Numbered from the stretch's first letter, positions 3,001 through 41,099 are shown. The stretch: DNA of 64,000 nt from a virus (IMGVR_UViG_3300019890_000003:13682-77681); one strand, 5' to 3'. The notes: a model not told the origin generated them from the sequence alone. Numbers and translations: made by a program.

Positions 3001-3643
3001 CATTTACACCGGCACCGCCTCCTGAGCCGCCCGCCGTCGAGTCAACCGCCGCGCCACCTGGAGCCCCAGTGAACTGATCTACAAGCGGCGTGCCGCCTGT
3101 AGAGCCGCCGCCATTACCGCCGCCGCCGCCGCCGCCATTCTGGCTGAAGCCTGTACTCGCCCCTGAACTGCCGCCAGCCTTCCCAGCGCCGCCGGGGCCG
3201 CCAGCACCACCACCTGCCGATGCGCCGTTAACAGTGTTAGCTTCCGCGCCGCCGTTACCGCCATTGACGGCCGTGCCGATCGAGCCGGATGCAAGGCCGC
3301 CTGGGCCGAATGTCGCCCCAGTAGCGCCGCCGCCCGCTTTCGCGCCGCAGCTCGAGCCGCCGAGAGTCGTGCCGTTAAACCAAGTGTCGCCGCCAGTGGT
3401 GCCGATAGCGCCGCCGACGCCGACCGTATAAGTGGCCGTGCCACCAGGCGTTAGGTTGACATTGGCGATCTTGGAATATGCGCCACCACCGCCGCCAGCA
3501 CCTGTGGTATTGGTGCCTACAACACCGCTAGCCCCGCCGCCTCCAGCACCGACCGTCTCAACGCTATTGTTTAAAATATTGAAATCGGTCGGAACATTGA
3601 ATGTCGCGAGCGAGCCCGACGTCAGATAAATGACTACCGCCAT
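1..3643 (-). CDS. Large repeat protein (>1214 aa, 3' end outside window): Gly-rich domain, ~21 F-x4-YRD repeats, inserted beta-sandwich domain; putative fibre scaffold
   Basis: Hand translation from ATG 3643 (MAVVIYLTSGSLATFNVP...). Frame stays open to position 2 (...IIVLCADKDAVIRIA), which is why the ORF track omits it. Gly-rich part ends GGVGGAGLIVITY near 2710. Confidence 0.9.
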   Translation of the reverse strand, partial: MAVVIYLTSGSLATFNVPTDFNILNNSVETVGAGGGGASGVVGTNTTGAGGGGGAYSKIANVNLTPGGTATYTVGVGGAIGTTGGDTWFNGTTLGGSSCGAKAGGGATGATFGPGGLASGSIGTAVNGGNGGAEANTVNGASAGGGAGGPGGAGKAGGSSGASTGFSQNGGGGGGGNGGGSTGGTPLVDQFTGAPGGAAVDSTAGGSGGGAGVNGGTGSNGSGGGGGGSTNGAAVAGNGGAGGNGLDVGDGTKGSGGGGGGGGGRNSPDTSAAGNGGAGGLYGGGGGGGGWSSSTAGTGGVGGAGLIVITYVPAGGGTAVESADLNVAGYTGGAGYRDYFIPPVNLSLYSTPPAATPFFNPATAAQFSSQKYADPSNFGENAFLPSVIQTPVETFLNFIENVSKFDAKTYLDTLGYETFNAFLPSIIQGEIQSLTGGPFNGLNYRDSFFDGSAFLPRVLQFPILPLLGAPFNSLSYRDPANFDPSPNAFLPQTIQNPAQSLLGVPFNSLSYRDSSTWTRNPSLFPAPVGSPFFSPLPPLPFSGLNYRDPANFDPSPNAFLPSIIQGEIQSQLGAPFNGLNYRDSLFDANAFLPATIQNPVQSLLGVSFNGLNYRDYSLGGENPSLFPVATVSPFFNPIASVPFNNVSYRDPLGYQTFNAFLPRGFELGYTTTSIGSLYNLVGVTVANGPYIVPNSGTIESISVNCSTGRNSTLSLAVYSDVAGKPGSLLAQATGGPSHDAWNTINTTANPLFVAGQVVWLAYLSVVNSDTVRADPSSETVYNDAGGDLALPNPYLSPTFVANESRSLYATFLPSIGEPVGALIGPPPPPIPFNTLSYRDSSATSVNDNLYQAVVFSPFFGQALPAVFSTQSYRDRGFDSNAFLPFTIQGKVQAYLGAPFNALGYRDLANFGDNAFLPNIIQTPTSTFLNFVENAAPFNSATYRDTYVYPRNTELYPPPTTFPLVQSLLGAPFNALAFRDPTNVGDNAFLPSIIQTPASTFLNLIENVVLFNAKAYRDSYVYPLNQGLFPAPAVVQTPFFNPFPVVKFDVKGYFDTAAGLKNAFLPGVIQGKVQSQLGVPFSDGKYRDTSEYPPHPFLPRLIQPPVQRALGVPFADKSYRDTTKYPASSFLPTVIQGKVQSLLGAPFADSRYRDRFIVPQRVPFYPIPVTGVPFFNPFITVRFDPLSYIDNTECTRTETNIIVLCADKDAVIRIA
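80..2650 (-). repeat. Coding tandem repeat of ~32-36 aa, consensus PFNxLxYRDxxxxxxNAFLPxxIQxxVQSxLGA
   Basis: 10 units at ~2650-1660 and 11 units at ~1160-80, separated by a non-repeat domain. Conserved at protein level, degenerate at DNA level. Confidence 0.9.
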
Positions 3644-3691: not shown

Positions 3692-4204
3692 CTATGGTAG
3701 CACCTTCAATATCCACGTATTGATAAACGGCGTAATTCCAGGAGGAGGAGATAGGATCGCATTGTTGTAATCGGCACTGTCACGGTAACTCATACTGTTA
3801 AACGGCGCCCCGAGTTGCGACTGCACTTTCCCCTGAATTAGCTTCGGCAGGAACGCGCTACCGTCAAAGAAGCTATCACGATACGTGAACGCATTGAATG
3901 GCGCCGGAATAAACGGATTAGAAAATGGCGCCAGCGTGGCGCCAAGGTATTGAATTACGCCGATCGCATCCGCGAGTTCCATCGCGGTTGTGGGTAGAGT
4001 CGGCAAAAGGCCGTTGTCGCTCCAGCTATTTCTATCCTGGTAGCTTAAACTCTGAAACGGAATTATGGGGGTTAGACCAAAAAACGGTTTCGCAGCAGCG
4101 GCCGGAGGATATAAGCTTTTGTTTAGCGGGAGATCCGCAGGATCGAGATAATTATGGCCATCAAACTTCGGCGGTCTGTTAAGAGATGTGCCGTATCGCG
4201 CCAT
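3692..4204 (-). CDS. Short YRD-repeat protein (4 units)
   Basis: FDGHNYLD, FQSLSYQD, FNAFTYRDSFFDGSAFLPKLIQGKVQSQLGAP, FNSMSYRD: same repeat as 1..3643. Confidence 0.85.
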   Translation of the reverse strand: MARYGTSLNRPPKFDGHNYLDPADLPLNKSLYPPAAAAKPFFGLTPIIPFQSLSYQDRNSWSDNGLLPTLPTTAMELADAIGVIQYLGATLAPFSNPFIPAPFNAFTYRDSFFDGSAFLPKLIQGKVQSQLGAPFNSMSYRDSADYNNAILSPPPGITPFINTWILKVLP

Positions 4205-4228
4205 GAAGCCGGACCTCTCGGCTTATCC

Positions 4229-5044
4229 CTACAGCCATGCGTTTACGAATGGGTCCACAGCAGCCGGTGGAAGAAACGTCTGCAGATCGAACGCAGGTGA
4301 TGCGAAGATGCCGTACGGATCAGACTCCAGAAGCACAGCGTCTTGTTGGGTAAGCGCATGATCCCAAAAATAGATCGCCATCATCGCCGTGTCTGGCATG
4401 GCCTGGATCTCTAATGCGGCGGTTGATTGCGTACCGGCACCAGCAGAAACCCCCGTCGACGTCAGATATGATGCAGCATCCACCCAGACATTGCTGGTCA
4501 GTGGATTAATCTTAAGGGAGGCCAAAACACCATGAATTCCATTGCTTACTGCTGCGCCAGGACCGACAGTGGAGAACGCACCATAATAAAGGCAATGTAG
4601 GTTGCTGTTAGCTGAAGACGTGAGCGGCCCGAAGCCGATGGGGCTAGCAGTGTTCGCGGCGTCACGCACGAACATCATGCCGTTGGCGCTGGCAGTCGAG
4701 ACGCCTATCTGGCGATAACGTATATAGAACGATATTTGTGGGGTCCACGCCACGATGCGCGGTGAGAGCGCGCCAGCCGCCGTGCATAAGCCATACCCGG
4801 TGTTAACCGCAGTACCAATTACCGGCCCTTCCTGAGTGACAGCCGGTATCCCTGTGCAGGCGGCACCAGCATTTTGAACATCTACATAGAGAAAAGGCTT
4901 ATTGATGCCGGTATAATCCACCCAGGATATCCCAGGAAGATATGCACCAATCAGTCCATCCGCCAGCGGGTGAGTCCGGTTAATCGAAAGACTCGCCGGA
5001 CGCGGAACCTGTTTCAGGCGTTGTCGCAACAGCTTGATAGGCAT
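4229..5044 (-). CDS. LamG/concanavalin-A-like domain protein
   Basis: HPLADGLIGAYL start, VWVDA strand and IYFWDHALTQQDAVLLESDPY end resemble phage LamG-like proteins. No signal peptide. Confidence 0.6.
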   Translation of the reverse strand: MPIKLLRQRLKQVPRPASLSINRTHPLADGLIGAYLPGISWVDYTGINKPFLYVDVQNAGAACTGIPAVTQEGPVIGTAVNTGYGLCTAAGALSPRIVAWTPQISFYIRYRQIGVSTASANGMMFVRDAANTASPIGFGPLTSSANSNLHCLYYGAFSTVGPGAAVSNGIHGVLASLKINPLTSNVWVDAASYLTSTGVSAGAGTQSTAALEIQAMPDTAMMAIYFWDHALTQQDAVLLESDPYGIFASPAFDLQTFLPPAAVDPFVNAWL

Positions 5045-5051
5045 ATGCGCG

Positions 5052-5528
5052 CTATGTCATGCTTATGTTGTAGGTGCGATAGCTAGATGTATTGCCTGAC
5101 GCCGGCGTCGAGTTAGTACCTGTCCCGTTGAAAATAACAAACTTAAAAGAGCCAGGCGGTATGACAATTTGAGTTAGAGAGCCATTTGTCGCTGTCGTGG
5201 TCACTACTGGTAAAGCGATACTACCGACCGAATAGTTAGAGGCTGGCGGCCCGGCCGCAGCCGTGGCGAACCGGCCATCACCATATGTCGAGCCATCTTG
5301 GTTAAGCGGGTAGAGATAAACCCCCAAGAAGGGCGCACCAGTTGTCGTCATCGCCGCAATATGAACAGAGAAATCGCAGAACATATCAAGTGCCGTGCCG
5401 TTGGTGATGACGACAGAGCTAGCTATGGCGTCATTAATCGGAAGCGCCGTGGTAGTGAATTCCGTTCCGAACGCCGCCGTCCACGTTAGGCCTACGCCAC
5501 TGCCAGCGATCCAGTGTGAAGCTGTCAT
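5052..5528 (-). CDS. Small beta-rich putative virion structural protein
   Basis: 158 aa, Thr/Ala/Gly-rich, in operon. Confidence 0.6.
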   Translation of the reverse strand: MTASHWIAGSGVGLTWTAAFGTEFTTTALPINDAIASSVVITNGTALDMFCDFSVHIAAMTTTGAPFLGVYLYPLNQDGSTYGDGRFATAAAGPPASNYSVGSIALPVVTTTATNGSLTQIVIPPGSFKFVIFNGTGTNSTPASGNTSSYRTYNISMT

Positions 5529-5636: not shown

Positions 5637-6683
5637 TCATGGCGGGCCATAGAAGCTAACACTGCTTGCTTGGATGGCATTGTCGATAGCGTCAGCCGTT
5701 TGCGACGCTACGATGTAGCCCTCATAAAAGGCGCCTGGAGAAGCATTACTTCCATCGCCGCCCTGCATCATAGCGATCCCCCCTTCAAGAAGCAGCGGGG
5801 TATGATCGCCTGGCAAAGCCACATTGTTATTCCAGGTTATTAAAGCCCCGGTTTGCGCATGTCCAGTTTTTCCTGTCCATACGGTTGCCCCATCTGTCTT
5901 CGCAATACCATTTTCGATAGTCGCACCCGCATAGCCGGTGCCAGACAAAAATAGGCCGCCATTCTCGATATCAATCGACTGCAATGGATTTGGATTTCCC
6001 CCCAGACCCAAGGCGAACATGTGACCGTTGCCGTTATCGGAATAAGTACTCTCGCCCTCGCCAAAATCAAAGCAGCAGTTGTTGACCGAAAAGGTGCCGT
6101 TAATCGTCCAATATTCCGTCACAGGAACGCTAGCACCAGTGACTGGTGTGCCTGGCATTCCGCCATTGTTTGGATCGCCATTCCGTGTCCCAGTGCTATA
6201 ACCAACCGCTGGCCGCTGAGGTCCATCTAATGTGCCGTTAAGCTCCTTCTCGGCATTGAAAACTATTTTGCCATTGGTAAGAACAATCCTGCGAACAAGC
6301 GCAGAGCTTCCTGTCGCTCCAAACCCAGTATTGGCAATAAAATCGAGATGGCTAGGCCCTTGGTCATAGAGCTTGGACATAAAGCAGGTTGTAGACGTGC
6401 AGAACGTGTCATAAGCCGCGTGATCTACGATGCCGTTGATCATGCCAATATCGAGAGTCGTGCTATCACTAGCCCGCACCGCTTGAAACAACTTACCGGT
6501 GTAGCTGTGGCTAAGAGCACGATTCAACGAATAAGCCACCACCGCCGGCTTGTTCGCCAAAGCCAGAATATCCATCGGCCACTTGTTTGTTTTGCTACCA
6601 TACTGATGAGTCATAATCGTAGCATGCGCGCCAACGCCAAGAATGCAGACTAGCAATATTAGAAGAAGGCTTCGCAGCTTCAT
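5637..6683 (-). CDS. Signal-peptide GH54 (alpha-L-arabinofuranosidase B catalytic-domain-like) protein
   Basis: YSLNRAL, KLYDQ, NNCCFDFGEGE, GHM, DIENG and EGGIAMMQGGDGSNASPGAFYEG match GH54 motifs. Leader MKLRSLLLILLVCILGVGAHA. Confidence 0.8.
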   Translation of the reverse strand: MKLRSLLLILLVCILGVGAHATIMTHQYGSKTNKWPMDILALANKPAVVAYSLNRALSHSYTGKLFQAVRASDSTTLDIGMINGIVDHAAYDTFCTSTTCFMSKLYDQGPSHLDFIANTGFGATGSSALVRRIVLTNGKIVFNAEKELNGTLDGPQRPAVGYSTGTRNGDPNNGGMPGTPVTGASVPVTEYWTINGTFSVNNCCFDFGEGESTYSDNGNGHMFALGLGGNPNPLQSIDIENGGLFLSGTGYAGATIENGIAKTDGATVWTGKTGHAQTGALITWNNNVALPGDHTPLLLEGGIAMMQGGDGSNASPGAFYEGYIVASQTADAIDNAIQASSVSFYGPP

Positions 6684-7304: not shown

Positions 7305-7820
7305 TCAGATCGTCTCGTAAACGATATGTCCACCGATAAGGCCTGCTGTACTGCCGGTGAACCCTGATAGAGATGCGTCTCCATTCGGCCCGGTAACGCC
7401 GACAAGTTTGAAGTACTCACCTGGATCCATTGCCGTCCAGCGCACGATGCCACCAAACGCATTGAAGGTAAGATTCAACCTGCCAAGCGTCACGACGTTA
7501 GACCTGGTTGGCTGCGTCGTTGCCGCAATATATCCTACAGCCGGCAACGCTAGTGCAGCGGCTGCTGGATCCATAGGACCATTCGATGACGTACCCGCAG
7601 CCAGAGCGGTAGGCGTGGCGCCAGCGGTCGAATCGCGCGACAAAACCATATACTGCGGCGCAGACGAAGTGGCTTGGCCGCCCATGTACACTTCGCTGAT
7701 GTCGTTACGCTGAGTGGCAGAGCCGCCACCAAGAGCCATATATGTACCGGTCGTTAGAACCGCGTTGTCGGCTGTCGCGGCAGTCGTGAAGCTGTTGGTG
7801 GAAAACGAATACTTGGTCAT
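7305..7820 (-). CDS. Small beta-rich putative structural subunit
   Basis: 171 aa, Ala/Thr/Gly-rich, no Cys, AAGGGG RBS-like sequence upstream. Confidence 0.65.
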   Translation of the reverse strand: MTKYSFSTNSFTTAATADNAVLTTGTYMALGGGSATQRNDISEVYMGGQATSSAPQYMVLSRDSTAGATPTALAAGTSSNGPMDPAAAALALPAVGYIAATTQPTRSNVVTLGRLNLTFNAFGGIVRWTAMDPGEYFKLVGVTGPNGDASLSGFTGSTAGLIGGHIVYETI

Positions 7821-7826
7821 AGCCCC

Positions 7827-8192
7827 TTATCCTTTTAGAAGCGGTGAGACAGACGTTAAGTTCGGGAGCGGGTTATATCCCGCCTCTTTTCTGAACGCCT
7901 GCTCTTGAAGGTGATCAAGCGTCTTAACAAAGGGAGTACATTCAGCGTGGCATGAAGGCTTGTCGCAGATGAACCGATCGCACTTCCGGCAATGGCCACG
8001 GGCTCGAACCCTGTACGGATTCATAATCACGACATCGTCGCAATGAGCGCAGGTTTGTGTAGGCGCCTCTAACACCTTGCCCTCTGGCACCGCCATGGTT
8101 GGATCGAGGCCAACGGCGAATAGCTCATCAGCGGTTATCCCTGGACTCGCGCGGTGATCGACGAGCAGGTGTCCTTCTTTTCTGCGCATCAT
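7827..8192 (-). CDS. Cys-rich putative Zn-binding protein
   Basis: CAHC...CRKCDRFICDKPSCHAEC. Confidence 0.65.
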   Translation of the reverse strand: MMRRKEGHLLVDHRASPGITADELFAVGLDPTMAVPEGKVLEAPTQTCAHCDDVVIMNPYRVRARGHCRKCDRFICDKPSCHAECTPFVKTLDHLQEQAFRKEAGYNPLPNLTSVSPLLKG

Positions 8193-8349: not shown

Positions 8350-9759
8350 TCAGTGCCACACACCGACCCAATCGACGAATAGGTCGTACTTCCCAGATGG
8401 AGGCGGGAGCGAAACCCACCCACCGCCGGATGCAAGCTCCAGCATCGGCGCCCATAGCGGCTTCACTGCGGAATTAGGGGAGCTGTATTGCGGAAATGAA
8501 TCGCATTTCAGCTGCACCTCGTCGAAATATTCACAGACAGTGCCGGTTGCGCTGCCAGAATTCGAAATCTTCATCCCGACAGTGTGCCAATCCCAGGTGA
8601 GATCCGCGCCCGACCCAAGAGGATACCCGGCATACCCGCCATTGGGGCTAGCTGGAAAGAACGCTGGCGCATATGCGTGCGTAAATGCCTGGTGATAATG
8701 GATGTCATTCCCGAACATTTCGGTCATGTCCATCTCCATGCCGCCATGAGTCTGATCGCTCAACTCAAGCATCCAGAAGGATGGCCACGTACCGCCTGAA
8801 CAGGTATTATCGCCTGGGACGTTACAGAAGGAGTTCGGGATCAGAATACGGGCGTCATAGTATCCGTCTGTTAGGCCAGGCGCAGAGGCTGATTTATCAG
8901 GATATCCTGTGCCGAGGATCCCACACCGTTGCTTACGGCCAAAGCCGTAGGGATCGACATAAGCAGGATCGAAAGTGTTGCGGATACGCAACCCGCCCTG
9001 TGGTAGAATGGTAAATGGATTGTACCCATTGACACTGTCGGTGTGCTCATTGGCGCAATCGCCGAAGTCTTGTCCGGTGAAGAGCCCTTCATACCATTTG
9101 AAACCATCAGATGCCGTTGGGGCAGTGCAGCTAGGCCACGTACCGGTGCCTGGCTTGCATGGTGTTGAGTTGAGCGTCGTGAAATGATCGCTGAAGGCGA
9201 GGGTCATTCCTGACGCTGGCGCAGGGGTTGGGATGGCAGGACGTGTGCCAGCTACAAAGAGCTTATACCTGCCCTGCAAATGGACTGTAGGACTACCGCC
9301 AGGCACGACATCGTAGGCATTGAATTCCACAGTGAGCGGGCCTGCTGGCTCGGCGGATAGGTCGAGCAGACCGGTGAACATGCTGCCTGAGCCTTGTGTA
9401 AGCCTCACGGCCATCGCACCATGCGTCCATACTTCGACATTGAGCGAGCCCAGCGCCTTGATAACGATCTGTTGCGGGCTGGCCGATACCGTCGCATTCG
9501 CGTCGGTGATGCCGAGATCCAACAAGGCTGGTGACGAAATCTGATTAGACGTCACGACATTGGGTGAGCAGGGTAAAATGATCCCCATCTGGTTGGTGGT
9601 GGCCGATGACGAGGAGCATGTTGGGACCGGCTGACAAAGCGGCACGGTGATCTGCGTATAGCCGCTAGAGCACTCGGCGTGCGCCTCAGGGAACGCGAAG
9701 AAATGAACATACCCCAGCGCTATGAGGAGGAATAAAACCGCGATGAAGTATTTCAGCAT
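8350..9759 (-). CDS. Signal-peptide GH16-like glycoside hydrolase
   Basis: Start reassigned to ATG 9759 (MLKYFIAVLFLL...AHA|ECSSGYT), overlapping the upstream stop. WPSFWML...EMDMTE matches the GH16 ExDxxE motif. Confidence 0.75.
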   Translation of the reverse strand: MLKYFIAVLFLLIALGYVHFFAFPEAHAECSSGYTQITVPLCQPVPTCSSSSATTNQMGIILPCSPNVVTSNQISSPALLDLGITDANATVSASPQQIVIKALGSLNVEVWTHGAMAVRLTQGSGSMFTGLLDLSAEPAGPLTVEFNAYDVVPGGSPTVHLQGRYKLFVAGTRPAIPTPAPASGMTLAFSDHFTTLNSTPCKPGTGTWPSCTAPTASDGFKWYEGLFTGQDFGDCANEHTDSVNGYNPFTILPQGGLRIRNTFDPAYVDPYGFGRKQRCGILGTGYPDKSASAPGLTDGYYDARILIPNSFCNVPGDNTCSGGTWPSFWMLELSDQTHGGMEMDMTEMFGNDIHYHQAFTHAYAPAFFPASPNGGYAGYPLGSGADLTWDWHTVGMKISNSGSATGTVCEYFDEVQLKCDSFPQYSSPNSAVKPLWAPMLELASGGGWVSLPPPSGKYDLFVDWVGVWH

Positions 9760-11408
9760 GTGTGCGGGCTCGATGGCGCCGTGCCAGTTTGGGGAATTAC
9801 GAAGCCAGGCGGTCCCCACGTCCGATCGAAGTCCGTGAAGCTCACTGGCGCGCTGAAGACTGGCGACGTCGGATCGATGACATACGACCAGCATGTCAAC
9901 TTCGGGTCTCCCGTGGTTGGGCTGGCATCGGTATAATTGCCGCCTGAGCTAAGCGTACCGCTCCCATAATTGTGATAGAAATTCGCCGTGATCGTCGGCG
10001 CGGTAGGCGGAGACCCACTCAGAATATTGTAGCCGCCACCGGCGGCGCCGCTGATGACGATGTTGTGCTCGACCTGATTGCCGTCCATGTTCGAATTAAC
10101 GGGGCATGTCGTGGTTTGAAACGCCACAATGCTCTGTCCGAGAGTCGATAGATCGATCAGGTTGTTGTTCACCCGAACGTTACGGCCGCCATGGAAGAGC
10201 ATGGCGGTATTCGAACCATTGCGCCCAGTGATAACATTCCCGGTCGCGAGGATGTCCGTGGCGCAGTCATCCGCATACATGGCCGAGCCGAAGCCCGAAC
10301 CGAGGGTGGCAAACGTGTTTGCGTCGCGGATGTAATTGTTGGTCCATTGGGCGCCGGTGCCGGTTTGCCTGGTGGCGTCGACTTGGTAGATCCCGCTACA
10401 ATCCGCCTGCGCGGTGCAGGTGTTCCAAATCGCCATGTGGTCGATGTGGGGATTGGTGAGGACGCTACCGCTGCCAGGGTTGGTTATGTTTATGCCCCAT
10501 GAATTGGTATCATGGATAACGCCATGCGAAATCGTCATGCCGACAGGACCGTAGAAGGATATTCCGCCTGGCGCTGAGAAGTTGGAGTTCGTGGCGTACT
10601 CGTTAAAGATGATGAAATCTTTGAGGATGACGTTCGTATCGCCGCCCGTCGAATGGAAGCCGCTGTGCTGGAAATCGTGCAGCGACAGGCCGTCGATCGT
10701 CACATTTGTGGTGTGATCGAAGTTGAAGATGAAATGCAGGCCGTTGCCGAAGGCCGTCGAGCCGCCCGTAAGGTCGGCGCTGTCATAGCCGTCCGGAGGA
10801 TAATAGGACCACGTCTCGCCACTATCGGCCGACGTGAGGGCTATCCCACAGGTAATGCCGGTGCCGCCGTCGCAATTCTGGACTGGCGTTGGGAAGCTGT
10901 AGCTGCCGGCGCGGATGTATGTGGTTAGGATCGTGCCGCTCGCGCGCATGGCCGCTTGGGCTTTGCTAAGCGTGGCGAATGGCGCAGCTAGAGTCCCAGC
11001 ATTGCTATCGCTGCCATTAGTGGCAACGTAGAACGCAGATGCCAAAGCTGGATTCACGGTCAAGGCAAGGGACGCCGTGCCTGTCCCGCCAGCGTTCGTC
11101 GCGCTCTCGGTCGTATTCGTGGTGCCGGTGACCGTGGGCGTGCCGGAAATAAGGCCGGTGCTGGTGTTGACTGACATGCCAACGGGCAGGGGCGATGCGC
11201 CCCAGCTCGTAGGGGTATTCGTGGCCGTGATCTGGAAACTGCACGAGGTGTTAACCGTGCAGCTTCCTGATGCCGGGCTCGTAATCACCGGCGCCGGCGT
11301 GCTGTTTAATTGGCACAACGGCACTGTGACCGCAGTGTATCCAGCCGCGCACTCGGCAAAGGCGGGGCCGGCTAGCGCAACAAGGAAGGCTGCGAGAATA
11401 CCTCTCAT
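9753..11408 (-). CDS. Signal-peptide protein: He_PIG-type Ig domain plus right-handed beta-helix (pectin-lyase-like fold)
   Basis: Start ATG 11408 (ATGA overlap). TGLISGTPT Ig motif; FYVATNGSDSNAGTLAAPFATLSKA; Asn-rich beta-helix coils. Confidence 0.8.
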   Translation of the reverse strand: MRGILAAFLVALAGPAFAECAAGYTAVTVPLCQLNSTPAPVITSPASGSCTVNTSCSFQITATNTPTSWGASPLPVGMSVNTSTGLISGTPTVTGTTNTTESATNAGGTGTASLALTVNPALASAFYVATNGSDSNAGTLAAPFATLSKAQAAMRASGTILTTYIRAGSYSFPTPVQNCDGGTGITCGIALTSADSGETWSYYPPDGYDSADLTGGSTAFGNGLHFIFNFDHTTNVTIDGLSLHDFQHSGFHSTGGDTNVILKDFIIFNEYATNSNFSAPGGISFYGPVGMTISHGVIHDTNSWGINITNPGSGSVLTNPHIDHMAIWNTCTAQADCSGIYQVDATRQTGTGAQWTNNYIRDANTFATLGSGFGSAMYADDCATDILATGNVITGRNGSNTAMLFHGGRNVRVNNNLIDLSTLGQSIVAFQTTTCPVNSNMDGNQVEHNIVISGAAGGGYNILSGSPPTAPTITANFYHNYGSGTLSSGGNYTDASPTTGDPKLTCWSYVIDPTSPVFSAPVSFTDFDRTWGPPGFVIPQTGTAPSSPHTC

Positions 11409-12682
11409 CTGAATGTCACGCCAATGCAAGTCATGGCGCCAGAATTACCAGCCGTGAACGTTTGCGCTACGGGAGCTGACGCAGGCGCGTAATCTCCCCA
11501 TCTATAAAAATCAGCGATCCCGCTTCCGGCTGTTACAACATGCGACAGCGTTGCCGGTGACAATGCCGTTGGAGAGCCGAGATCGTTCATCCCGACATAG
11601 AATGCCCACTCTCCTGACTGCCATGTTTCGCTTATTGCCGGCACGACGCATGTCGTTCCATTTGACGTGTTTGCCTTACTCGATACTGCCTTAACCGCAA
11701 TCGACCCAGACGACGTTTTGTAATTCCTGATATTCCCGTCAATTGCCGCATAGGCCAGACCGGAACCAGGCATCGTTACCGTGTAAGATGCAGGCTCAGA
11801 ACTTGCAGTACGAGAAAAGAGTGCTGTCGTGAAGTTCCCATAAACTGGATCAAGTGCATTAGCTAGGCGGGCAACCACCGTCCACCCTGCCGGGGTGTTT
11901 GGCGTCTCGACAGGATCGGTTAAGGCCGTCTGCGAAGTGACGACCATAAACATTAAATCGCCATTGGCGACGCCAGCAGGCGTGCTCAATACGACGGACT
12001 GCGAAGCCGAAGCATTATATCCGCCGTCAGCGCCGAAGGAAATTGTGCCAGAGCCGGCCGCCGCGATGGTCAACGCCAGGTTTTGAGTTCCCGTCCCCGC
12101 CCCATTGGTTGCACTAAGGCCGACGGTGCTCGAACTAGCTGCCGTTGGCGTACCGGAGATAGTACCGGTCGAAGTGTTAATCCCGAGAGGAGCCGGAAGA
12201 TTGCTTGCGCCATAGCTGGTCGGCATATTGGTTGCGGTAATATGATATGTAAATCCAGTGCCCACCGTGCCAGACGCCGTGGTGGGGCTGTTGATAACCG
12301 GTGGCGAGCCAGCGGCGGCGATAGTCAGGGCCAGCGTCTCATTGCCGGTGCCCGTCCCATTCGTCGCGCCTAGCGTGACGTTGCCGCTAAAGGGGGCAGT
12401 GGGAGTGCCTGATATGAGACCGGTCCCCGTATTGACCCCAAGGGGTGATGGAAGCCCGGTAGCACTGTAGCTAGTGGGCGAATTGGTTGCGGTAATCTGG
12501 TAGCTGAAGGCCATCCCGGCGGTGCCGCTAGCGGTTGACGGACTAGTGACGACGGGCGCGCCAGTGGTGTTTTGCTGGCAGGCAAAGACGTTACTCAGCT
12601 GCGTGTAACCCGTAGCGCACTGGGCATTTGCTCCCACCGTAAGCGCGATAAGTGCCGTGAAAGCAATGGCTAAGGACTTCAT
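11405..12682 (-). CDS. Signal-peptide protein with two He_PIG-type Ig domains and a C-terminal beta-sandwich
   Basis: Two PVxxSPxTASGT...TGxISGTPT units. LSTPAGVANGDLM...TPAGWT...SEPASYT domain. Leader ends ANA. Confidence 0.8.
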   Translation of the reverse strand: MKSLAIAFTALIALTVGANAQCATGYTQLSNVFACQQNTTGAPVVTSPSTASGTAGMAFSYQITATNSPTSYSATGLPSPLGVNTGTGLISGTPTAPFSGNVTLGATNGTGTGNETLALTIAAAGSPPVINSPTTASGTVGTGFTYHITATNMPTSYGASNLPAPLGINTSTGTISGTPTAASSSTVGLSATNGAGTGTQNLALTIAAAGSGTISFGADGGYNASASQSVVLSTPAGVANGDLMFMVVTSQTALTDPVETPNTPAGWTVVARLANALDPVYGNFTTALFSRTASSEPASYTVTMPGSGLAYAAIDGNIRNYKTSSGSIAVKAVSSKANTSNGTTCVVPAISETWQSGEWAFYVGMNDLGSPTALSPATLSHVVTAGSGIADFYRWGDYAPASAPVAQTFTAGNSGAMTCIGVTFR

Positions 12683-13260: not shown

Positions 13261-13368
13261 TGACGTTTCGGCTTGCCGGGTTCTTAGCCTCGCCCGGCAA
13301 AGCGAAGCGCCAGAAACGGAGCCGCCCAAGACTGGGAGATTGCGCGGATAGTTTGCCCGCGACGCTTC
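13261..13368 (+). ncRNA. Candidate structured cis-RNA, copy 1 (partial copy 13747-13792; copy 3 at 14355-14442)
   Basis: TGACG[hairpin]GCGCCAGA in three intergenic gaps. GAAAYGGAGC and GCGCGGATA...TGCCCGCGACGCT shared by copies 1 and 3. Confidence 0.5.
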
Positions 13369-13470
13369 ACAACAAAGGCCGGACCGACGCGCCACGCGGA
13401 CAACGCATTAGCACCGCTAGCCGCAGCGCGCCGATCCGTAACTCAACGAAACTAGGAGATTAACAAGGAA

Positions 13471-13749
13471 ATGAAAACACGCGAACAAAAGTACGAAGCC
13501 ATTTGGGATCGGGCAATCATGCTCGACTCCAAAAACCAAACAGAGACATTCTTGGACCTTGCCAAATGGCTCAACAAGAATGGATTTCGTAACCAAGCGG
13601 GGAAGCCATATAGGCCAGTCCCGCGTGGTGTCGCTAAGGTTGTCGCCTCTGCATGGACATATGCAGCCGACAGGTTCGGAGAGAAGAAGGCGCTCCCGAT
13701 TGCAAATGCCTTCACTGGCTCAACCGGGGAATATTCTTGGACTGAGTGA
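13471..13749 (+). CDS. Small protein resembling the serine-recombinase 'recombinase' DNA-binding motif
   Basis: LAKWLNKNGFRNQAGKPY; AAGGA RBS. Confidence 0.5.
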   Translation: MKTREQKYEAIWDRAIMLDSKNQTETFLDLAKWLNKNGFRNQAGKPYRPVPRGVAKVVASAWTYAADRFGEKKALPIANAFTGSTGEYSWTE

Positions 13750-13876
13750 CGTTTCGGCCTGCCGCTTGTGGGCGGCAGAGCGAAGCGCCAGAGTTTCAAA
13801 ATCCGGCGGGCAATCTCCCTTGCGGATACAAGGCGGCGGAATCTTTGTCGCTTCACCTTAACCATAAGAGGAAATC

Positions 13877-14140
13877 ATGACAACCAAAACTAACGTACCA
13901 GCCGTACACCTAACCCCAAAGCAACAATCCGTCATGAACGGCGCGCTGAGGGACACGCTTCTCAGCGAGCGCGCCATTGCCCGTTTAGAGGCGGCTGCGG
14001 AGGCCGTACACGCCCAAGCCAATGGGGGACGGGGATTTCAGGCTGTCAGCTCAAAGGAGGGCTTCGCGGCCACTATTAAGCACGGCAAGACCCTAATCGA
14101 AATTCAGGGCGATAGCTTTGCTGTAAGGCAAACGGATTGA
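13877..14140 (+). CDS. Hypothetical protein
   Basis: GAGGA RBS, 87 aa. Confidence 0.6.
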   Translation: MTTKTNVPAVHLTPKQQSVMNGALRDTLLSERAIARLEAAAEAVHAQANGGRGFQAVSSKEGFAATIKHGKTLIEIQGDSFAVRQTD

Positions 14141-14150
14141 GGAGAAGAAC

Positions 14151-14354
14151 ATGAGCGACATGCGAGAGAAGATTTATCATGACCTTTTTGATGCTCAGCA
14201 TCTGCTGAAAGCGCTAAAGTTCATTCTCGATGAAACCGAGGAGGGCACCGATAGTGGGCTGATGATGTCCAGTGTCGCAGACGCGATCATGGCTAAATTG
14301 GAGCAGATCGAGATCCGTCTTGACGCGAAGACTGATATCAGCCTTGCAGCCTAA
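14151..14354 (+). CDS. Hypothetical acidic protein
   Basis: GAGGAG RBS, 67 aa. Confidence 0.6.
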   Translation: MSDMREKIYHDLFDAQHLLKALKFILDETEEGTDSGLMMSSVADAIMAKLEQIEIRLDAKTDISLAA

Positions 14355-14442
14355 TGACGCAAGCCCATGGGCATCATGGTGCCCATGCACGAGCGCCAGA
14401 AATGGAGCAGCTGATGCGCGGATAACAGTGCCCGCGACGCTC
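14355..14442 (+). ncRNA. Candidate structured cis-RNA, copy 3
   Basis: Same conserved blocks as 13261-13368 with a different inner hairpin (CATGGGCA/TGCCCATG). Confidence 0.5.
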
Positions 14443-14733
14443 GGCTTAAAACCCAGGCATCCACTGCAACGGGTGCCTGGGCGCCTAGCAAGCTAGGTCT
14501 TAATGCCCGACGGCCGGGGTACGATTCGCAAAACCGAAATTACGCTGTCGAATTATGGAATGTCGTAGCATTGATAACAACTTATGGAGCGATTCGGCGC
14601 TAGAGCGCAACGAAAAGCCACATCCACACGATATCGCTCATTGACATCCAGTTTGGCGGGGTTGCCGGTTAGCTACGCCGGTCCTACGCGGGCTCCCGCG
14701 CCGTGCTGCTCACACTACAACCCCAGATATAAA

Positions 14734-14976
14734 TTAATCCCCGCACTCGCGGCGATACAGCTCGCAATTGCCCTGGCCCTCTTCGCCTAGCTCATGCTTA
14801 TGGGCGCAAGCCGCGCGCAATTCCCGACACCTACCCTCGGCATGATCCCTGTGGTGTTCATGCTGTAATGGCTCAACTCTGAGCCCATTAGGGCCAATCT
14901 CAAATTCCTGTGAGAATGCCGACAGCGGGAAGGCAAACGCGGCAGCAAGGATCAGGGCGAGGGCGTATGAACGCAT
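14734..14976 (-). CDS. Small secreted Cys-containing protein
   Basis: Signal peptide; CRELRAAC...GEEGQGNCELYRREC. Confidence 0.7.
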   Translation of the reverse strand: MRSYALALILAAAFAFPLSAFSQEFEIGPNGLRVEPLQHEHHRDHAEGRCRELRAACAHKHELGEEGQGNCELYRRECGD

Positions 14977-15062
14977 GGATTATTTCCCAACAAATGGCGC
15001 GAGGGCGGCAACCAAAAAGCAGATTGCCGTAACCAAATACATGATATCTTGGAAGCGTTGCA

Positions 15063-15635
15063 CTACGCAGCCTTATCGGTTGCGATAATATGTTCCGGAT
15101 AAGCAATCGCATTCCATTTTGCTACCGGATCAACTAGCCAATCATCGCTCCAATGGCCAGGTGGATGCGGCAGCTTGATTTCGTTTATCGAACGCAACGC
15201 ACTGTGCGGTACAAAATAGGCGCCCTCGCGTTCGCCGTGAGAATGCAACCATTCCGCTCGGCGCGCGTCTTGCGCCATTATCCAGCCCCATACGATGAAC
15301 ATAGGGCCTGTGCCGGTTACGAGAGAGTAGGGACGATCTTTCGAATCTTTTCGTACAATCAACTGATATTCGTGTTGCGTCCTAGTTCTAACCTCAAAGT
15401 CACCGACGTCCGGATCATTAGGCCGATTAACTGATTTCCGCCATTGCAACCCTGTCGCTTTGGCAAAACAGCATTCGCCGCGCGCGCCTGTCCGATGCAA
15501 AAACTCGCCGCCCGTCGCGCCGTATTTATCCTCGCTATGAAGGCGCTCTGATTCGGCTTGCCTCAAATTACCGATCTCGTCGGCCTCCGACATCTCAGCA
15601 GGCGTAAGGCTCCAAGGCTGAGCAATGAATTTCAA
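15063..15635 (-). CDS. Phage protein, possible PD-(D/E)xK-like nuclease fold
   Basis: GARGECCFAK...PDVGDFEVRT. Confidence 0.5.
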   Translation of the reverse strand: MKFIAQPWSLTPAEMSEADEIGNLRQAESERLHSEDKYGATGGEFLHRTGARGECCFAKATGLQWRKSVNRPNDPDVGDFEVRTRTQHEYQLIVRKDSKDRPYSLVTGTGPMFIVWGWIMAQDARRAEWLHSHGEREGAYFVPHSALRSINEIKLPHPPGHWSDDWLVDPVAKWNAIAYPEHIIATDKAA

Positions 15636-15676
15636 ATTGGATGGGCTTTCTAAGGGCTTTTGCCCACCGGGAGGTC

Positions 15677-15707
15677 AAAAAAAGGCCCGCGTGTGAGATC
15701 GCGAGCC
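15677..15707 (-). terminator. Intrinsic terminator
   Basis: GGCTCGCG-8-CGCGGGCC followed by T7 on the minus strand. Confidence 0.7.
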
Positions 15708-16001
15708 ATAAGTTTGGCTTGGGAGGAAATCACGGAACGGCCAGCGCATCAAGCGCAAAGAGGCACGGTGCGTTTCTGACACAAAGCATAGGCAAAGGCC
15801 CATGTCAAGCGGTATCGATAGGCTTTTGCCCAACGTCATCAGATTTCACAATTACCGGGCGTTGCCGCCACGGGAATAGCTCTTGCTTGTAGGTTGCCGC
15901 CATAATCACAACCTTGGCTATTACGCCGAAGCACATGGCGGCAAAAGCCAACCCCATCAGAATGCCACAGCCGGCACCAACCAAAAAGCCAATGACGAAT
16001 T

Positions 16002-16271
16002 CTAGGTGCACGTTATCTGCTCGCGGAAGCTCTCAAGGTTTTTGCGCTCTGGCATGGTGAGCTTTTGGCGATCGCCTGAGCGCTTGTTCCGGATGTTGCA
16101 GCACACGTAGCAACTGCACGTTTGCGGCTGTTCCTTAAACCTCGCCATGGCCTTGGGATCGGTCCAGCACGGGCACGACAAATCCTCGTAATGCTGATTA
16201 CGATCTTCCTTCAGCCGCCGCCACATATGGCGGCTTTCCTGATGGCGCCTATATGAAATTTCCCTGGTCAT
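16002..16271 (-). CDS. Basic Cys-containing hypothetical protein
   Basis: CPC and CSCYVCCN motifs; overlaps neighbours. Confidence 0.55.
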   Translation of the reverse strand: MTREISYRRHQESRHMWRRLKEDRNQHYEDLSCPCWTDPKAMARFKEQPQTCSCYVCCNIRNKRSGDRQKLTMPERKNLESFREQITCT

Positions 16272-16577
16272 TCCTTAGGCCTCTCACCATAAAAGCCAGC
16301 AATAATTCTCATCAATTCGTGCGGAGTGAATTCCCCGTCCAGCGTTATTGATTTTTCATTGAAGCATATCCACGCGCCATCGCGAGATAGGTCTACCGTT
16401 GTCCCCTTTGGGACGGGGGCGTTAATAAATTCATCGAGAGTTGTTCTTGTCATCGCCGACCTATCCACATCGCCAAATCCAACACGACAGCTACTCCGAC
16501 GCAAATGACTGCCGCGCCAACAAGGATGGCCGCTAAGTCGAGGATGATGCCGCCGATGTTAACCACCCAATCGAGCA

Positions 16578-17108
16578 TCATCTCCGCCCCAATTTCTTCA
16601 ACAGTTGCGCAAGCGAAAACAAAATCTCGATCGCGTGCGGCTCGAGCAATGGATCGATCTCAGCCTCGTGCACCGTGAGCATGCGCAACGCGCTAAATCC
16701 GTAAATGCTTTGGCGCTTGAGAGGTTTCTCGAGGCGCTCGAGTTCCTCCTTGAGCTTGATCGCCTTCTCCTCGCTTACCCCAGCCCCAGAGCCAGAACCG
16801 CCATCCGATGTTGGTTGCGGAATGCCCTTAGCCGCATAGAATTGGCGCACCAATCCGCCATACTCGATCCCGCTGTCGTAAATCTCTCGCCTTAGCTTGT
16901 GCCGAAGACACATTCGCCCAAGCGGGGATTCGCACTCTTGAAGGTTGTCACCACGCCGATGCGGTTGCGATAACACTGTAATCATTTCGGCTATCCCAAC
17001 ATATTTGTCTCGATCGGCGGCAAGCAAGCGCTTCAAACGCCCGTTGGGCTCACGCGGGCCGAACTTTCGCTTGCGGCCGAGGCGGTTCATCTGCTCATTC
17101 GCCAGCAT
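16578..17108 (-). CDS. Phage protein at distal end of replication arm, possible late regulator
   Basis: GRKRKFGPREPNGRL N-terminus; function inferred from position only. Confidence 0.5.
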   Translation of the reverse strand: MLANEQMNRLGRKRKFGPREPNGRLKRLLAADRDKYVGIAEMITVLSQPHRRGDNLQECESPLGRMCLRHKLRREIYDSGIEYGGLVRQFYAAKGIPQPTSDGGSGSGAGVSEEKAIKLKEELERLEKPLKRQSIYGFSALRMLTVHEAEIDPLLEPHAIEILFSLAQLLKKLGRR

Positions 17109-17590
17109 TCGCGACTAACCAAAGGGCAATTGCAGCCCCCACGAACAAAGCTAGAACTGCGATTATCGTAACTTGCAACCAGTTCATTCCGCCGCCTCGC
17201 GCATCCGCTTTTTCCTCATGTAGTCACGCATATATCGGCGCATATACGCGTTGTACCTTTCGCGTGTACTCCAGTTCCCATTCTTCGATCCGCTCGCAGA
17301 AGTCTCAATGGGTTGCTCGTCATAAGCAATCTTGCCGCGATATAGCTTCATGCGGCCCATCGTCCTCGACAAACTCCACGCCACTCGACAAGCATTCCAA
17401 ACATATTTTCCTCGGCTTCGTGGAGATTGGCGGCTTCGACGGATCGCTCCAATCGATGCAATACCCGATTGCCGTGCGTTGTACGCCACAATAATCGCAA
17501 AATGGATGATTTTCTATCATTTTACCGACGTTCTATCCCATTTTCCTAGTGTTCTCGCGTATAAAGGGCAGTTATGTCAGCATTGCTGAC

Positions 17591-17842
17591 CTAACTATCC
17601 AGCCTCGCCGTCTCGGTTTCCACGCGGCGCACGCCCTCGACAAGCCATGCTTGCCGGAAAATCTTTTCATTATCGGCCATGCAAATTTCCAGGATCTCAT
17701 ACGGCACGCCTGGCAATGGCTTATCGTCTTTGTCGAGCGGTTGCCATTCGACATCGGCCTCGAAGCGCGCAACCGCTCGCACACCTTCCGGCGGCGACAA
17801 TCCATCTCGGCATCTAGCCAACACGTGAAATCTAATTTTCAT
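17591..17842 (-). CDS. Hypothetical protein
   Basis: ATGA-coupled chain of small ORFs. Confidence 0.55.
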   Translation of the reverse strand: MKIRFHVLARCRDGLSPPEGVRAVARFEADVEWQPLDKDDKPLPGVPYEILEICMADNEKIFRQAWLVEGVRRVETETARLDS

Positions 17843-39867: not shown

Positions 39868-39896
39868 CATGATACGGGGCAAATGCCTTTTGTCAA
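39868..39896 (-). promoter_or_regulatory. Promoter with operator upstream of lysis region
   Basis: Minus strand TTGACA-AAAGGCATTTGCCCCG-TATCAT; a second TTGACA plus operator at 39546-39524. Confidence 0.65.
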
Positions 39897-39999: not shown

Positions 40000-40716
40000 C
40001 TAGCAATGGGTGACCAAGCCGGCGTTGACTGTAAAGAATGGGGTTGGCGGTCCGAAGCATGACACCGCCATGGTGCCTTTGACGTTTACGCTCCCGACGT
40101 CTAGTGTAAGCATACCTGAGCTGTGGATGTGGAAGTCGCTAGGCCATTGTTGTAGCCATGCGCTTGATCCATCTGGCGCTTCCCACCAAATGTAATCGTA
40201 CACCGGCATGCCTATCGCGGCGCCCGCCTCGAGCGCGCCGTTGGCGAAGACAATTCCGGTTTTGTATTGCTGGGTGTTTGGGGCGATGGCCAAGGCCGTT
40301 CCACACTCATGCTCATTTGCCTGCCCGTTCCCGCAATCGATCAGGAGATTGGTGTTCGTGACTGGATTCCAATTGTATGGGGCACGCCCGGCCACCACCG
40401 GCCCTTGGTTGACAAGGGAGTTTTCCTCGTCGATCAGGCGGCCGGAGCTACCCGGCGTGATGACGCCAAGCGTGTAACGCGCCCAGGCGTTCCCAGAGCC
40501 GCCGCCGCTGTTGAGCATCGCGATCGCGGTGTCGGCGACGGTGTAATTGTTGATGGTTCCCAAAGTTTGCGTGGCGGCCACACTACCGCTCCCCGCCGCC
40601 GCGCCAAAATACGCTCCGACGAAGGACGGTACCGTGTTGCAAACCGGGGCCACGCATGTTTGTGCGGACGCCGCCGAGCTGAAGAGAGCGGCGAGTAAGA
40701 CAAAATAACTTCGCAT
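40000..40716 (-). CDS. Signal-peptide fibre/spike-like protein
   Basis: Leader ends ASA|QTCVAPVC; C-terminus VSCFGPPTPFFTVNAGLVTHC. Confidence 0.7.
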   Translation of the reverse strand: MRSYFVLLAALFSSAASAQTCVAPVCNTVPSFVGAYFGAAAGSGSVAATQTLGTINNYTVADTAIAMLNSGGGSGNAWARYTLGVITPGSSGRLIDEENSLVNQGPVVAGRAPYNWNPVTNTNLLIDCGNGQANEHECGTALAIAPNTQQYKTGIVFANGALEAGAAIGMPVYDYIWWEAPDGSSAWLQQWPSDFHIHSSGMLTLDVGSVNVKGTMAVSCFGPPTPFFTVNAGLVTHC

Positions 40717-40721
40717 TGCGA

Positions 40722-41099
40722 TTAACTACACGTAACGGTGATAGTCGTTGGGGCCGAGGTGCCGGTCGAACTTATCGCGTAGAGCACAAACGTATAGGTC
40801 CCTGCCGTTCCCGCGCTCATATAAAACAAGCTTGTATTTGGACCGGGATTGGACGCAGTAAAAAGCGGCGGACTCCCTCCGCTAGTGCTGTACCCATAAA
40901 ACGACGTAACGTTACCGGAAGCCGTGGCTTGATATGTGTTATTAATCCCGCCAACCACACAATTTGATGTCGTCAAAGGGCTCGTGATCACCGGATTCGT
41001 TTGTTGACACACCGGAAGCGCCGGACCAGCCACGCATTGAGCAAAAGCGGAGGCTGGGGCAAAGAAAAATAGAATTAGCAGACGACACAGTTTCGTCAT
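40722..41099 (-). CDS. Signal-peptide single-Ig-domain protein, related to the N-terminus of 11405..12682
   Basis: AFA|QCVAGPALPVCQQTNPVITSP...YQATA. Confidence 0.7.
   Translation of the reverse strand: MTKLCRLLILFFFAPASAFAQCVAGPALPVCQQTNPVITSPLTTSNCVVGGINNTYQATASGNVTSFYGYSTSGGSPPLFTASNPGPNTSLFYMSAGTAGTYTFVLYAISSTGTSAPTTITVTCS

Follow-up and report, generated by a model that had tools for sequence, protein, structure and literature searches.

A short two-cysteine tag directly behind the signal peptide of exported phage proteins with unrelated payloads

Results

Four exported proteins share one N-terminal module

Four proteins encoded in the window (the whole 64,000-nucleotide stretch of viral DNA analysed here) carry the same short module at their mature N-termini. 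The module is real and previously undescribed, and presumably serves these exported proteins as an address or for docking. The tag is 12–16 residues long and contains two cysteines. The signal peptide in front of it has an AxA cleavage site, and the tag itself, which begins right behind this site, reads [QE]-C-A-x-G-Y-T...C-Q (the positions are given in Table 1). Both cysteines of the tag are invariant, the mature residue +1 is Gln or Glu, and the length of the loop defines three classes: A (C-x12-C), B (C-x11-C) and C (C-x8/9-C).

Table 1. Positions of the tagged genes, of their tags and of further genes discussed in the text.
Feature	Position	Strand	Remarks
A-class gene, 425 aa	11405..12682	-	ORF; signal peptide 12623-12682
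A tag QCATGYTQLSNVFACQ	12575-12622	-	re-translated coordinates
B-class gene (B1), 551 aa	9753..11408	-	ORF; signal peptide 11355-11408
B1 tag ECAAGYTAVTVPLCQ	11310-11354	-	re-translated coordinates
Second B-class gene (B2), 469 aa	8350..9759	-	signal peptide 9676-9759
B2 tag ECSSGYTQITVPLCQ	9631-9675	-	re-translated coordinates
C-class gene, 125 aa	40722..41099	-	signal peptide 41040-41099
C tag, short loop QCVAGPALPVCQ	41004-41039	-	re-translated coordinates
Exported orphan, 238 aa	40000..40716	-	signal peptide; QTCVAPVCN at 40636-40662
Untagged exported GH54-like arabinofuranosidase	5637..6683	-	PF09206, E 2.4e-45; signal peptide by heuristic; A/B operon
Conserved fibre anchor, 210 aa	45135-45767		no signal peptide

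A protein was counted as a member of the family if [QE]-C-x2-G-...-C followed AxA, with the cysteines 8–12 residues apart and Gly at Cys+3, and if, directly after the signal peptide, the tag profile scored ~36 bits or higher. The 425-, 551-, 469- and 125-residue proteins score 55–69 bits, partly by construction because all four belong to the profile model, and the other signal-peptide proteins of the genome reach 4 bits at most. A six-frame regular-expression scan of the whole 77.7-kb genome found C-x2-G...C-Q after a signal peptide in these four proteins only. At the level of sequence, the four tagged N-termini are a real family, far beyond chance. The initial annotation had assigned such a tag to five proteins. 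All five of its peptides are encoded on the minus strand of the window, directly after signal-peptide-like N-termini, and the claim stands for the four proteins named above, which are supported by the profile, the regular expression and independent homologues. The fifth, the 238-residue orphan, falls short of the family definition: it has a C-x4-C pair and no Gly, its 2.6 bits with the tag profile correspond to the level of proteins having a signal peptide only, and no homologue of near length was found among 5.8 billion proteins, so that its membership cannot be shown.

No Pfam-A or NCBIfam model covers the tag loop, the matches of the tagged proteins being confined to their payload domains. 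In a profile search of PDB sequences the best match (E 0.12) was to an artificial signal peptide and no entry covered the tag. Neither the motif nor Sec-exported tail fibres were found reported in the literature.

The signal peptides were judged by a basic n-region, an uncharged h-region of ~10–15 residues and small residues at -3/-1. In agreement with Sec export and signal peptidase I, Ala is invariant at -3 and -1 (alignment A3), and the hydrophobic core is kept despite free amino-acid change (alignment A3 and heuristic scan scores). These heuristics together with the conservation suggest that the signal peptide is cleaved at AxA and that the tag cysteines probably form a disulfide. The disulfide-closed tag proposed initially is thereby consistent with the invariant Cys pair, with the signal for export and with the hairpin that AF2 models at low confidence, the bond itself being presumed. 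Processing as a lipoprotein by signal peptidase II is excluded, since Q or E always precedes the Cys and the lipobox L-[AS]-[GAS]-C is incompatible with this.

The tag precedes unrelated payloads

The domains that follow the tag differ between the proteins, as had been noted before. The 425-residue A protein contains two He_PIG Ig-like domains (E 2.7e-15) and a beta-rich C-terminal half; in its AF2 model the Ig domains have pLDDT of 80–96 and the C-terminal half <50, and the tag is modelled with low confidence (pLDDT ~55) as a hairpin with strands 26–29 and 32–37. The gene of the 551-residue B1 protein starts 4 nt before the end of the A gene. This protein consists of one He_PIG domain and a right-handed beta-helix (pectate-lyase-like; PelN-like with E 1.5e-10), the latter having homologues at ~50% identity. 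The He_PIG (PF05345) scores of the A and B1 proteins are 57 and 32.6 bits, respectively, at a gathering cut-off of 24. The gene of the 469-residue B2 protein in turn shares 7 nt with the gene before it; the C-terminal part of this protein is GH16-like with an E-x-D-x-x-E motif (EMDMTE), its match to EglC (GH16) being weak (E 7e-5), and its homologue P0139 carries the same tag. The 125-residue C protein is predicted to form one Ig-like beta-sandwich (AF2 pLDDT 63–83, <50 in the tag), for which a fold search gave generic Ig/FN3-like matches only; its loop is kept in the homologues P0160 and P0163.

The GH54-like arabinofuranosidase of the A/B operon is exported without a tag, which means that the tag is not required for export alone. 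Even numbers of cysteines are also found in other exported proteins of the phage. In all, at least nine unrelated payload types occur behind the tag, namely Ig-like domains, further domains that are likely to bind, beta-helices and GH16-like ones, which bears out the interchangeable payloads suggested initially.

The tag is rare and recurs in independent contigs

The motif is conserved in homologues, as the same tag is found on independent homologues from other contigs. Tagged genes occur in seven independent contigs, which include two other phages, metagenome contigs and two MAGs (one labelled Methylocapsa). Among 1.84 billion representative proteins, an exhaustive HMMER search with the profile gave 28 matches at E 1e-3 or better; a word-based profile search, crowded by long proteins, gave 15. 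Nearly all of the 28 matches lie at the extreme N-terminus directly after the signal peptide. In the exceptions (P0145, P0161 and the second stretch of P0146) the tag still lies behind a signal-peptide-like stretch, and wrongly called starts or fused gene calls seem to be the cause. The subtype-A DNA pattern is present in two contigs of IMG/VR, both already known. No match to the cassette DNA was found in the phage collection, and no relatives of the whole 425-residue protein among viral contigs.

The 3.9-Mb MAG labelled Methylocapsa contains only two tag matches, and a strong match was found in 2 of the 301 genomes of its family. For the genomes searched, these counts reject a host-wide sorting signal. 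The same 301 genomes contain no sheath homologues, so the assignment of the host comes from the two MAG contigs only; the hosts of the tag-bearing temperate soil phages are probably Beijerinckiaceae.

The A tag is conserved at the protein level

Between six loci the A tag shows 7–12 synonymous versus 0–2 nonsynonymous differences per 16 codons. In the adjoining signal peptide the nonsynonymous count rises to 8–15 per 20 codons, and the payloads are unrelated. Of the 16 tag positions, 10 are the same in all 20 distinct A-tagged N-termini compared, and four more vary in one sequence each. The B tag is clearly looser, with 2–7 nonsynonymous changes per 15 codons. Conservation at the DNA level or by recombination only is rejected because synonymous sites are saturated. 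By these codon comparisons, very strong selection acts on the tag, which is a discrete module.

A- and B-class genes are always adjacent

Each of the seven independent contigs (7/7) has its A and B genes next to each other, and the C-class genes are not adjacent to them. The initial annotation had proposed attachment to one site; this does not agree with three conserved classes, of which A and B always occur together. The A tags are found on small domains without a detectable catalytic family, which are likely binders, and the B tags mostly on glycanases. In contig L010 both B-tagged payloads are of a non-catalytic kind, so that the assignment of A to binders and B to enzymes is no more than a tendency.

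The arrangement of one domain (‘NVGYTT’) varies between contigs. In G302 it is a separate A-tagged gene adjoining a B-tagged beta-helix gene, in G303 it is an A-tagged gene adjoining a two-loop beta-helix protein, and in L007, P0067 and P0011 it is part of a fusion, with the B tag before it and the beta-helix after it. In the single chains with two loops (n=3; the 921-residue protein of G303, P0033 and P0060) the 11-residue loop always comes first and the 12-residue loop second.

Discussion

Possible function of the tag

As the best reading, we tentatively regard the tag as a connector, an oxidised hairpin by which binder chains are linked to enzyme chains exported separately. Once the protein has been exported and cleaved, the tag cysteines would most likely be oxidised in the periplasm, giving a small rigid beta-hairpin; this may be the standard connector of accessory proteins that temperate soil phages export. 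The A-class and B-class hairpins are encoded side by side and probably pair, which would unite binders and enzymes made as separate chains in a single complex outside the cytoplasm; there, the interface would be fixed and the payloads could be swapped between phages. Pairing is favoured by the adjacency of the A and B genes, their 4-nt overlap in the window, the ‘NVGYTT’ domain being either a separate A-tagged gene or fused behind the B tag, and the constant loop order of the two-loop chains. The connector reading also draws on the rarity, the selection pattern and the exchangeable payloads of the tag, on its independence of the tail type and on the hairpin predicted for the A tag. Docking or oligomerisation by the tag, as the initial annotation suggested, is itself inferred.

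Several points speak against a connector. The A–B interaction is a putative one, and the AF2 models of the A and C tags, as described above, are of low confidence. The looser B tag is unexpected if its face and that of the A tag fit each other, and the adjacency of A and B could come from tandem duplication inside one operon. The separate position of the C-class genes and the non-catalytic B payloads of L010 are also not in line with it.

It is possible, though we consider it doubtful, that the tag is instead an address read by the envelope machinery of the host, leading to outer-membrane transfer of the folded protein or to its retention at the surface or sacculus, with the classes being different addresses. 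A nearly invariant A tag at saturated synonymous divergence fits a non-co-evolving partner, for instance an essential host structure. In the podovirus G302 the same payload domain is found both with and without the tag, which indicates a contribution of the tag beyond mere export. Short sorting signals at the mature N-terminus are known (see below). Furthermore, comparison of the myovirus G000 with G302 revealed no shared phage-encoded periplasmic receptor: apart from the exported set, these complete phages have only a few early genes and one tail-anchored coiled-coil protein in common, and the coiled-coil protein, their sole shared non-exported late protein, is probably cytoplasmic. On the other hand, the host-type genomes searched make no use of the tag themselves (the two matches in the 3.9-Mb MAG are cassette genes), which would leave a host system without native clients, and an address explains neither the strict A–B adjacency nor the split and fused arrangements of the domains.

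A function of the tag as virion adaptor seems unlikely. Receptor-binding or depolymerase subunits folded in the periplasm would in this case dock on the particle via the hairpin once lysis mixes the compartments. Beta-helix and Ig-like payloads are typical of tailspikes, and the tagged genes of G303 lie directly behind the baseplate hub inside the tail operon. The C-class gene of the window is located behind an 839-residue fibre-like gene. The true conserved fibre anchor of the lineage is a 210-residue protein without signal peptide, and the fibre gene of the window is this anchor part only, signal-peptide-bearing genes coming next. In addition, a tailspike-like protein of G302 lacking a signal peptide is 66% identical to the core of a signal-peptide-bearing G303 protein. 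A tail anchor, however, has no export signal and tracks the tail type, whereas the cleavable signal separates the tagged proteins from cytoplasmic tail assembly, and the tag is independent of tail type: it is common to G000 and G302, whose virion genes give no mutual BLAST match at E 1e-4 or better. Nor was the tag found at the 13 loci screened (of 17 relatives found) with the same baseplate, at 48–60% identity and within the ≤10 kb fetched on either side of the gene. Its presence in a podovirus and absence from these 13 loci make a docking site on the tail unlikely, contrary to the docking on tail or fibres proposed initially. The A–B cassettes also lie outside tail modules (near early genes in L010, in a separate operon in the window), and the podovirus already has a tailspike without signal peptide.

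The link between accessory operon and tail-fibre locus drawn in the same annotation comes down to one C-class protein and one non-member. YRD repeats, which had been named as a candidate partner, are not supported as such: no repeat protein was found in a complete 48-kb tag-bearing phage, in a search without positive control.

It is likewise improbable that the tag has no specific partner and is an N-terminal cap against exoproteases (with possible pyroglutamate and the disulfide) or an aid to export or folding, spread together with a successful signal peptide. The constant location at the extreme mature N-terminus, Gln or Glu at +1, the oxidising extracellular setting and the even Cys counts of other exported phage proteins would agree with a cap. 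Nevertheless, a cap needs little beyond two cysteines, and this does not account for the nearly invariant A tag (n=20) or for the maintenance of three discrete length classes, and the same phages export other proteins that lack the tag. Also improbable is the idea that some receptor-binding and glycan-cutting parts, folded in the periplasm, which allows disulfides to form, snap together and onto the finished particle at lysis via hairpin plugs, virion completion taking place outside the cytoplasm.

Comparison with known systems

Modular tags for swapping binding and enzyme domains of phages are central to the evolution of host range and polysaccharide degradation. To our knowledge, the domain-swapping tags described so far are on tail proteins assembled in the cytoplasm. 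The novelty of the present case is a tiny unannotated candidate connector after an export signal, common to unrelated tails and with nearly all residues of its A class conserved. Should it prove to be a docking peptide, exported proteins would have a natural disulfide-closed tag of 16 residues for their assembly, and this would help in understanding the surface biology of soil phages and hosts and in annotating ‘hypothetical’ proteins of soil viruses.

Receptor-binding proteins and depolymerases of Klebsiella KP32/KP34-type phages and TSP1-4 of CBA120 carry a conserved N-terminal anchor or ‘conserved peptide’ in branched tailspike systems. As in the tagged proteins, a short conserved N-terminus is combined with variable, horizontally exchanged C-terminal domains for binding or glycan cutting, several per phage. 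Unlike the tag, these anchors have no signal peptide, are assembled on a specific tail in the cytoplasm and track the tail type; the tag is a two-cysteine loop behind a cleavable export signal, occurs with unrelated tails and was not found in the same-baseplate relatives screened.

Dockerin is a duplicated calcium-binding segment of ~70 residues, usually C-terminal, that works with a cohesin scaffold. It resembles the tag as a small module on many exported enzymes and binding modules, allowing subunits to be mixed and matched, but the tag is much smaller, N-terminal and closed by two cysteines, and its docking role is a candidate one. Pfam scans of the tagged proteins and their neighbours gave no dockerin (PF00404-type) or cohesin match, and the tag is not a dockerin.

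CsgA N22 (export by CsgG) and the Bacteroidetes lipoprotein export signal are sorting signals in the first mature residues. They share with the tag the position directly after the cleavage site, and the tag is portable between cargoes; they differ in having unrelated sequences, no cysteine loop, host encoding and many host clients. Class IIa bacteriocins have a double-glycine leader and a receptor-docking pediocin-box hairpin, YGNGV-C-x4-C. Here the likeness, taken as a lead only, is a small, nearly invariant, disulfide-closed N-terminal hairpin of a secreted protein; on visual comparison the motif, leader, organisms and loop length differ and there is no sequence match.

Exported glycanases of temperate soil phages, to which the tagged enzymes are similar, are represented among soil prophage CAZymes, of which about 5% have signal peptides according to the part of the study considered here (PMC13507307). 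That part describes no shared tag after the signal peptide, no tag classes and no tagged non-enzymatic partners. The tag bears on whether soil phage glycanases act as free enzymes, in complexes or as parts of the virion.

Phage and tagged genes

The virus record of 77,681 bp, of which the window covers bases 13682–77681, belongs to a temperate, myovirus-type phage that also encodes a GtrB-like glycosyltransferase. No DNA-level match to the region was found in the INPHARED phage collection, and identity of the sheath to those of known phages does not exceed 44%.

Positions of the features discussed (aa, length of the encoded protein)
Feature	Locus	Position	Strand
Repeat protein, 1290 aa	window	2–3643	-
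Exported untagged protein, 348 aa	window	5637–6683	-
171-aa protein	window	7305–7820	-
Cys-rich protein, 121 aa	window	7827–8192	-
B-tagged, 469 aa	window	8350–9759	-
B-tagged, 551 aa	window	9753–11408	-
A-tagged, 425 aa	window	11405–12682	-
87-aa protein	window	13877–14140	+
Phage lysozyme	window	39.0–39.5 kb	
Sigma-70-like site	window	39869–39896	-
QTCVAPVCN protein, 238 aa	window	40000–40716	-
C-tagged, 125 aa	window	40722–41099	-
Fibre-like protein, 839 aa	window	41110–43629	-
Signal-peptide protein, 388 aa	window	43969–45135	-
Anchor protein, 210 aa	window	45135–45767	-
Tail sheath, baseplate hub and wedge, tape-measure-like genes	window	46.8–58.8 kb	
Coiled-coil protein (266/278 aa)	L013, before the window	8763–9563	-
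Coiled-coil protein (266/278 aa)	L001, podovirus	16815–17651	+
Tailspike-like protein	L001, podovirus	3736–5343	+
Exported spike protein, >1137 aa	L002, other myovirus	13309–16719	+
839-aa N-terminus, relative	L027	14953–15402	
839-aa N-terminus, relative	L032	13968–15488	
Fragmented beta-helix gene	L018, G235 contig 9	9161–9949	+

Re-translation reproduced exactly the five ORFs and N-terminal strings of the initial annotation. Each opens with a basic residue followed by a hydrophobic stretch and an AxA site, the Cys loop beginning at residue +1 or +2. Of the proposal that all five share one tag, four members stand: only these carry C-x2-G...C-Q behind a signal peptide when the complete genome is scanned in six frames with a regex. 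They score 55–69 bits against a profile of tag-bearing N-termini; as this profile includes the four themselves, independent homologues elsewhere weigh more. The 238-aa protein is a look-alike with 2.6 bits, for which no near-length homologue was found, and the remaining signal-peptide proteins of the phage reach at most 4 bits. Between the 238-aa gene and that for lysozyme is TTGACA-16-TATCAT (11/12), the region's best sigma-70-like site, so the lysis genes may have a promoter of their own.

Distribution and conservation of the tag

The tag is a portable module under selection. Its classes are A (Q-C-A-[ST]-G-Y-T-Q-L-S-N-V-[FY]-A-C-Q, C-x12-C), B (E-C-[AS]-x-G-Y-[TS]-x-[VI]-x-V-P-[LIF]-C-Q, C-x11-C) and the shorter C (Q-C-x2-G-x...P-V-C-Q, C-x8/9-C); no entry in Pfam, NCBIfam or PDB sequences covers it. 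When a ten-sequence profile was run with HMMER exhaustively against 1.84 billion representative proteins, only 28 matched (E 1e-3 or better), nearly all at the extreme N-terminus behind a signal peptide. A wrongly called start or a fusion of gene calls seems to account for the few internal ones (proteins P0145, P0161 and a second stretch of P0146). Most homologues of the beta-helix protein are bacterial enzymes with different leaders; a minority bear ASPAFA|[EQ]CAxGY[TS]Q[VI]xVP[LIF]CQ, two of them with tandem loops. Conservation in homologues beyond this genome was borne out when viral, genome and metagenome collections were scanned; this gave seven independent contigs: this genome, a podovirus-like temperate phage (G302, 48 kb, rated 100% complete), a fragment of a different myovirus (G303), WNGI01003312/Ga0137376, Ga0307477, one from a MAG labelled uncultured Methylocapsa (G001) and one from another genome of that family (G235).

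Among six loci the 16 codons of the A tag show 7–12 synonymous and only 0–2 amino-acid differences, while the 20 signal-peptide codons directly upstream differ at 8–15 amino acids and the 30 that follow the tag are unrelated. Conservation thus acts at the protein level, and this codon comparison rules out a DNA or recombination footprint as its source. It covers almost every residue of the A tag, beyond the cysteines; that the tag is a plain stabilising cap is improbable. The B tag is looser (2–7 amino-acid changes per 15 codons). Cleavage at AxA, a disulfide between the two tag cysteines and folding as a hairpin are well-founded inferences. The AF2 model lends the hairpin weak backing for the A tag (strands 26–29 and 32–37, pLDDT only about 55); in the A protein confidence is high for the Ig domains but not for the C-terminal half, and the C tag is unmodelled.

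Payloads and pairing of A and B

The suggestion of interchangeable payloads holds, at least nine unrelated types being fused to the tag: He_PIG Ig-like domains, single small Ig-like sandwiches, a right-handed beta-helix, a GH16-like type, an 'NVGYTT...GPYTMPQ' domain (~170 aa) and at least four more unassigned families. All A-tagged payloads are at most 425 aa and none matches a catalytic family. Most B-tagged ones are of the beta-helix or GH16-like types; locus L010 departs from this, both its B payloads being non-catalytic in kind.

A adjoins B in 7/7 contigs, and the tagged genes of the window overlap by 4 and 7 nt. The 'NVGYTT' domain has its own A-tagged gene in G302, adjoining a B-tagged beta-helix, and in G303, adjoining a two-loop beta-helix protein; in L007, P0067 and P0011 it sits inside a fusion (B tag, domain, beta-helix). 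In all three natural two-loop proteins the 11-residue loop precedes the 12-residue loop. Mainly because of these split and fused patterns and this loop order we tentatively favour the tag as a connector, by which A- and B-tagged exported chains would be joined.

The operon shares its gene order with L007 (A, B, two small conserved proteins, large repeat protein). The Cys-rich protein (7 Cys, zinc-finger-like) and the 171-aa protein, 78–79% identical to their L007 counterparts, are the most conserved of the accessory operon and gave no family match. Residues ~655–811 of the repeat protein form an inserted domain; at 34–35% identity it is a homologue of the A-tagged 'NVGYTT' domain of G302 and G303. 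The 348-aa protein of the same operon has a match to the catalytic domain of alpha-L-arabinofuranosidase B, family GH54 (E 2.4e-45). Upstream of the A-B cassette, in divergent orientation, the 87-aa protein keeps its position in L007 and L010 (82–92% identity) and is present in G302; it may regulate the cassette.

Host envelope and virion as alternative sites

That envelope machinery of the host reads the tag as an address is rather unlikely. The 3.9-Mb Methylocapsa-labelled MAG has it on its two cassette genes only, and a strong match occurs in just 2 of the 301 genomes of the family, which indicates that the host does not use it on its own proteins and rules out a host-wide signal for the genomes searched. 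The cassette of each MAG contig sits at a contig end, next to ordinary chromosomal genes, and the G235 beta-helix gene is fragmented, which fits a prophage edge or remnant. The latter gene, in at least two fragments, adjoins an intact A-tagged gene downstream of chromosomal PriA and phosphoribosyltransferase genes, suggesting a decaying cassette or prophage edge. The two contigs point tentatively to a Beijerinckiaceae host; a search of the 301 genomes gave no homologue of the sheath.

A virion adaptor acting after lysis has a low probability. Docking on the tail was not supported: this phage and G302 have no common virion proteins (BLAST, E 1e-4 or better), sharing only the exported set, the coiled-coil protein and a few early genes. 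The coiled-coil protein has a single C-terminal membrane helix and is 56% identical between myovirus and podovirus. Nor did a search of the complete G302 detect the repeat protein, a suggested tag partner. The baseplate wedge protein has homologues in 17 IMG/VR loci (38–60% identity); in the 13 screened (48–60% identical, covering at most 10 kb on either side of the gene) neither the tag nor a BLAST homologue of the tagged proteins was found. The N-terminal ~105 residues of the 210-aa protein, which lacks a signal peptide, are retained throughout these 13 and constitute the lineage's true fibre anchor.

The relatives carry this anchor on fibres of 210–1131 aa. In the window the 210-aa protein is anchor only and is followed, with an ATGA overlap, by the 388-aa signal-peptide gene; the fibre may thus consist of separate pieces, with the anchor in the cytoplasm and the distal parts exported. 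The 839-aa protein has a signal peptide followed by Q-x-GPGP-x-P-x-PW, and its exported N-terminus recurs in two baseplate-sharing relatives. Over 371 residues the podovirus tailspike-like protein, without signal peptide, shares 66% identity with the central part of the signal-peptide-bearing L002 protein, so one spike module occurs in exported and non-exported forms.

Relation to known exported phage enzymes

The tag is undescribed in the literature sources searched. Exported prophage glycanases as such are already known: PMC13507307 reports signal peptides for about 5% of soil prophage CAZymes.
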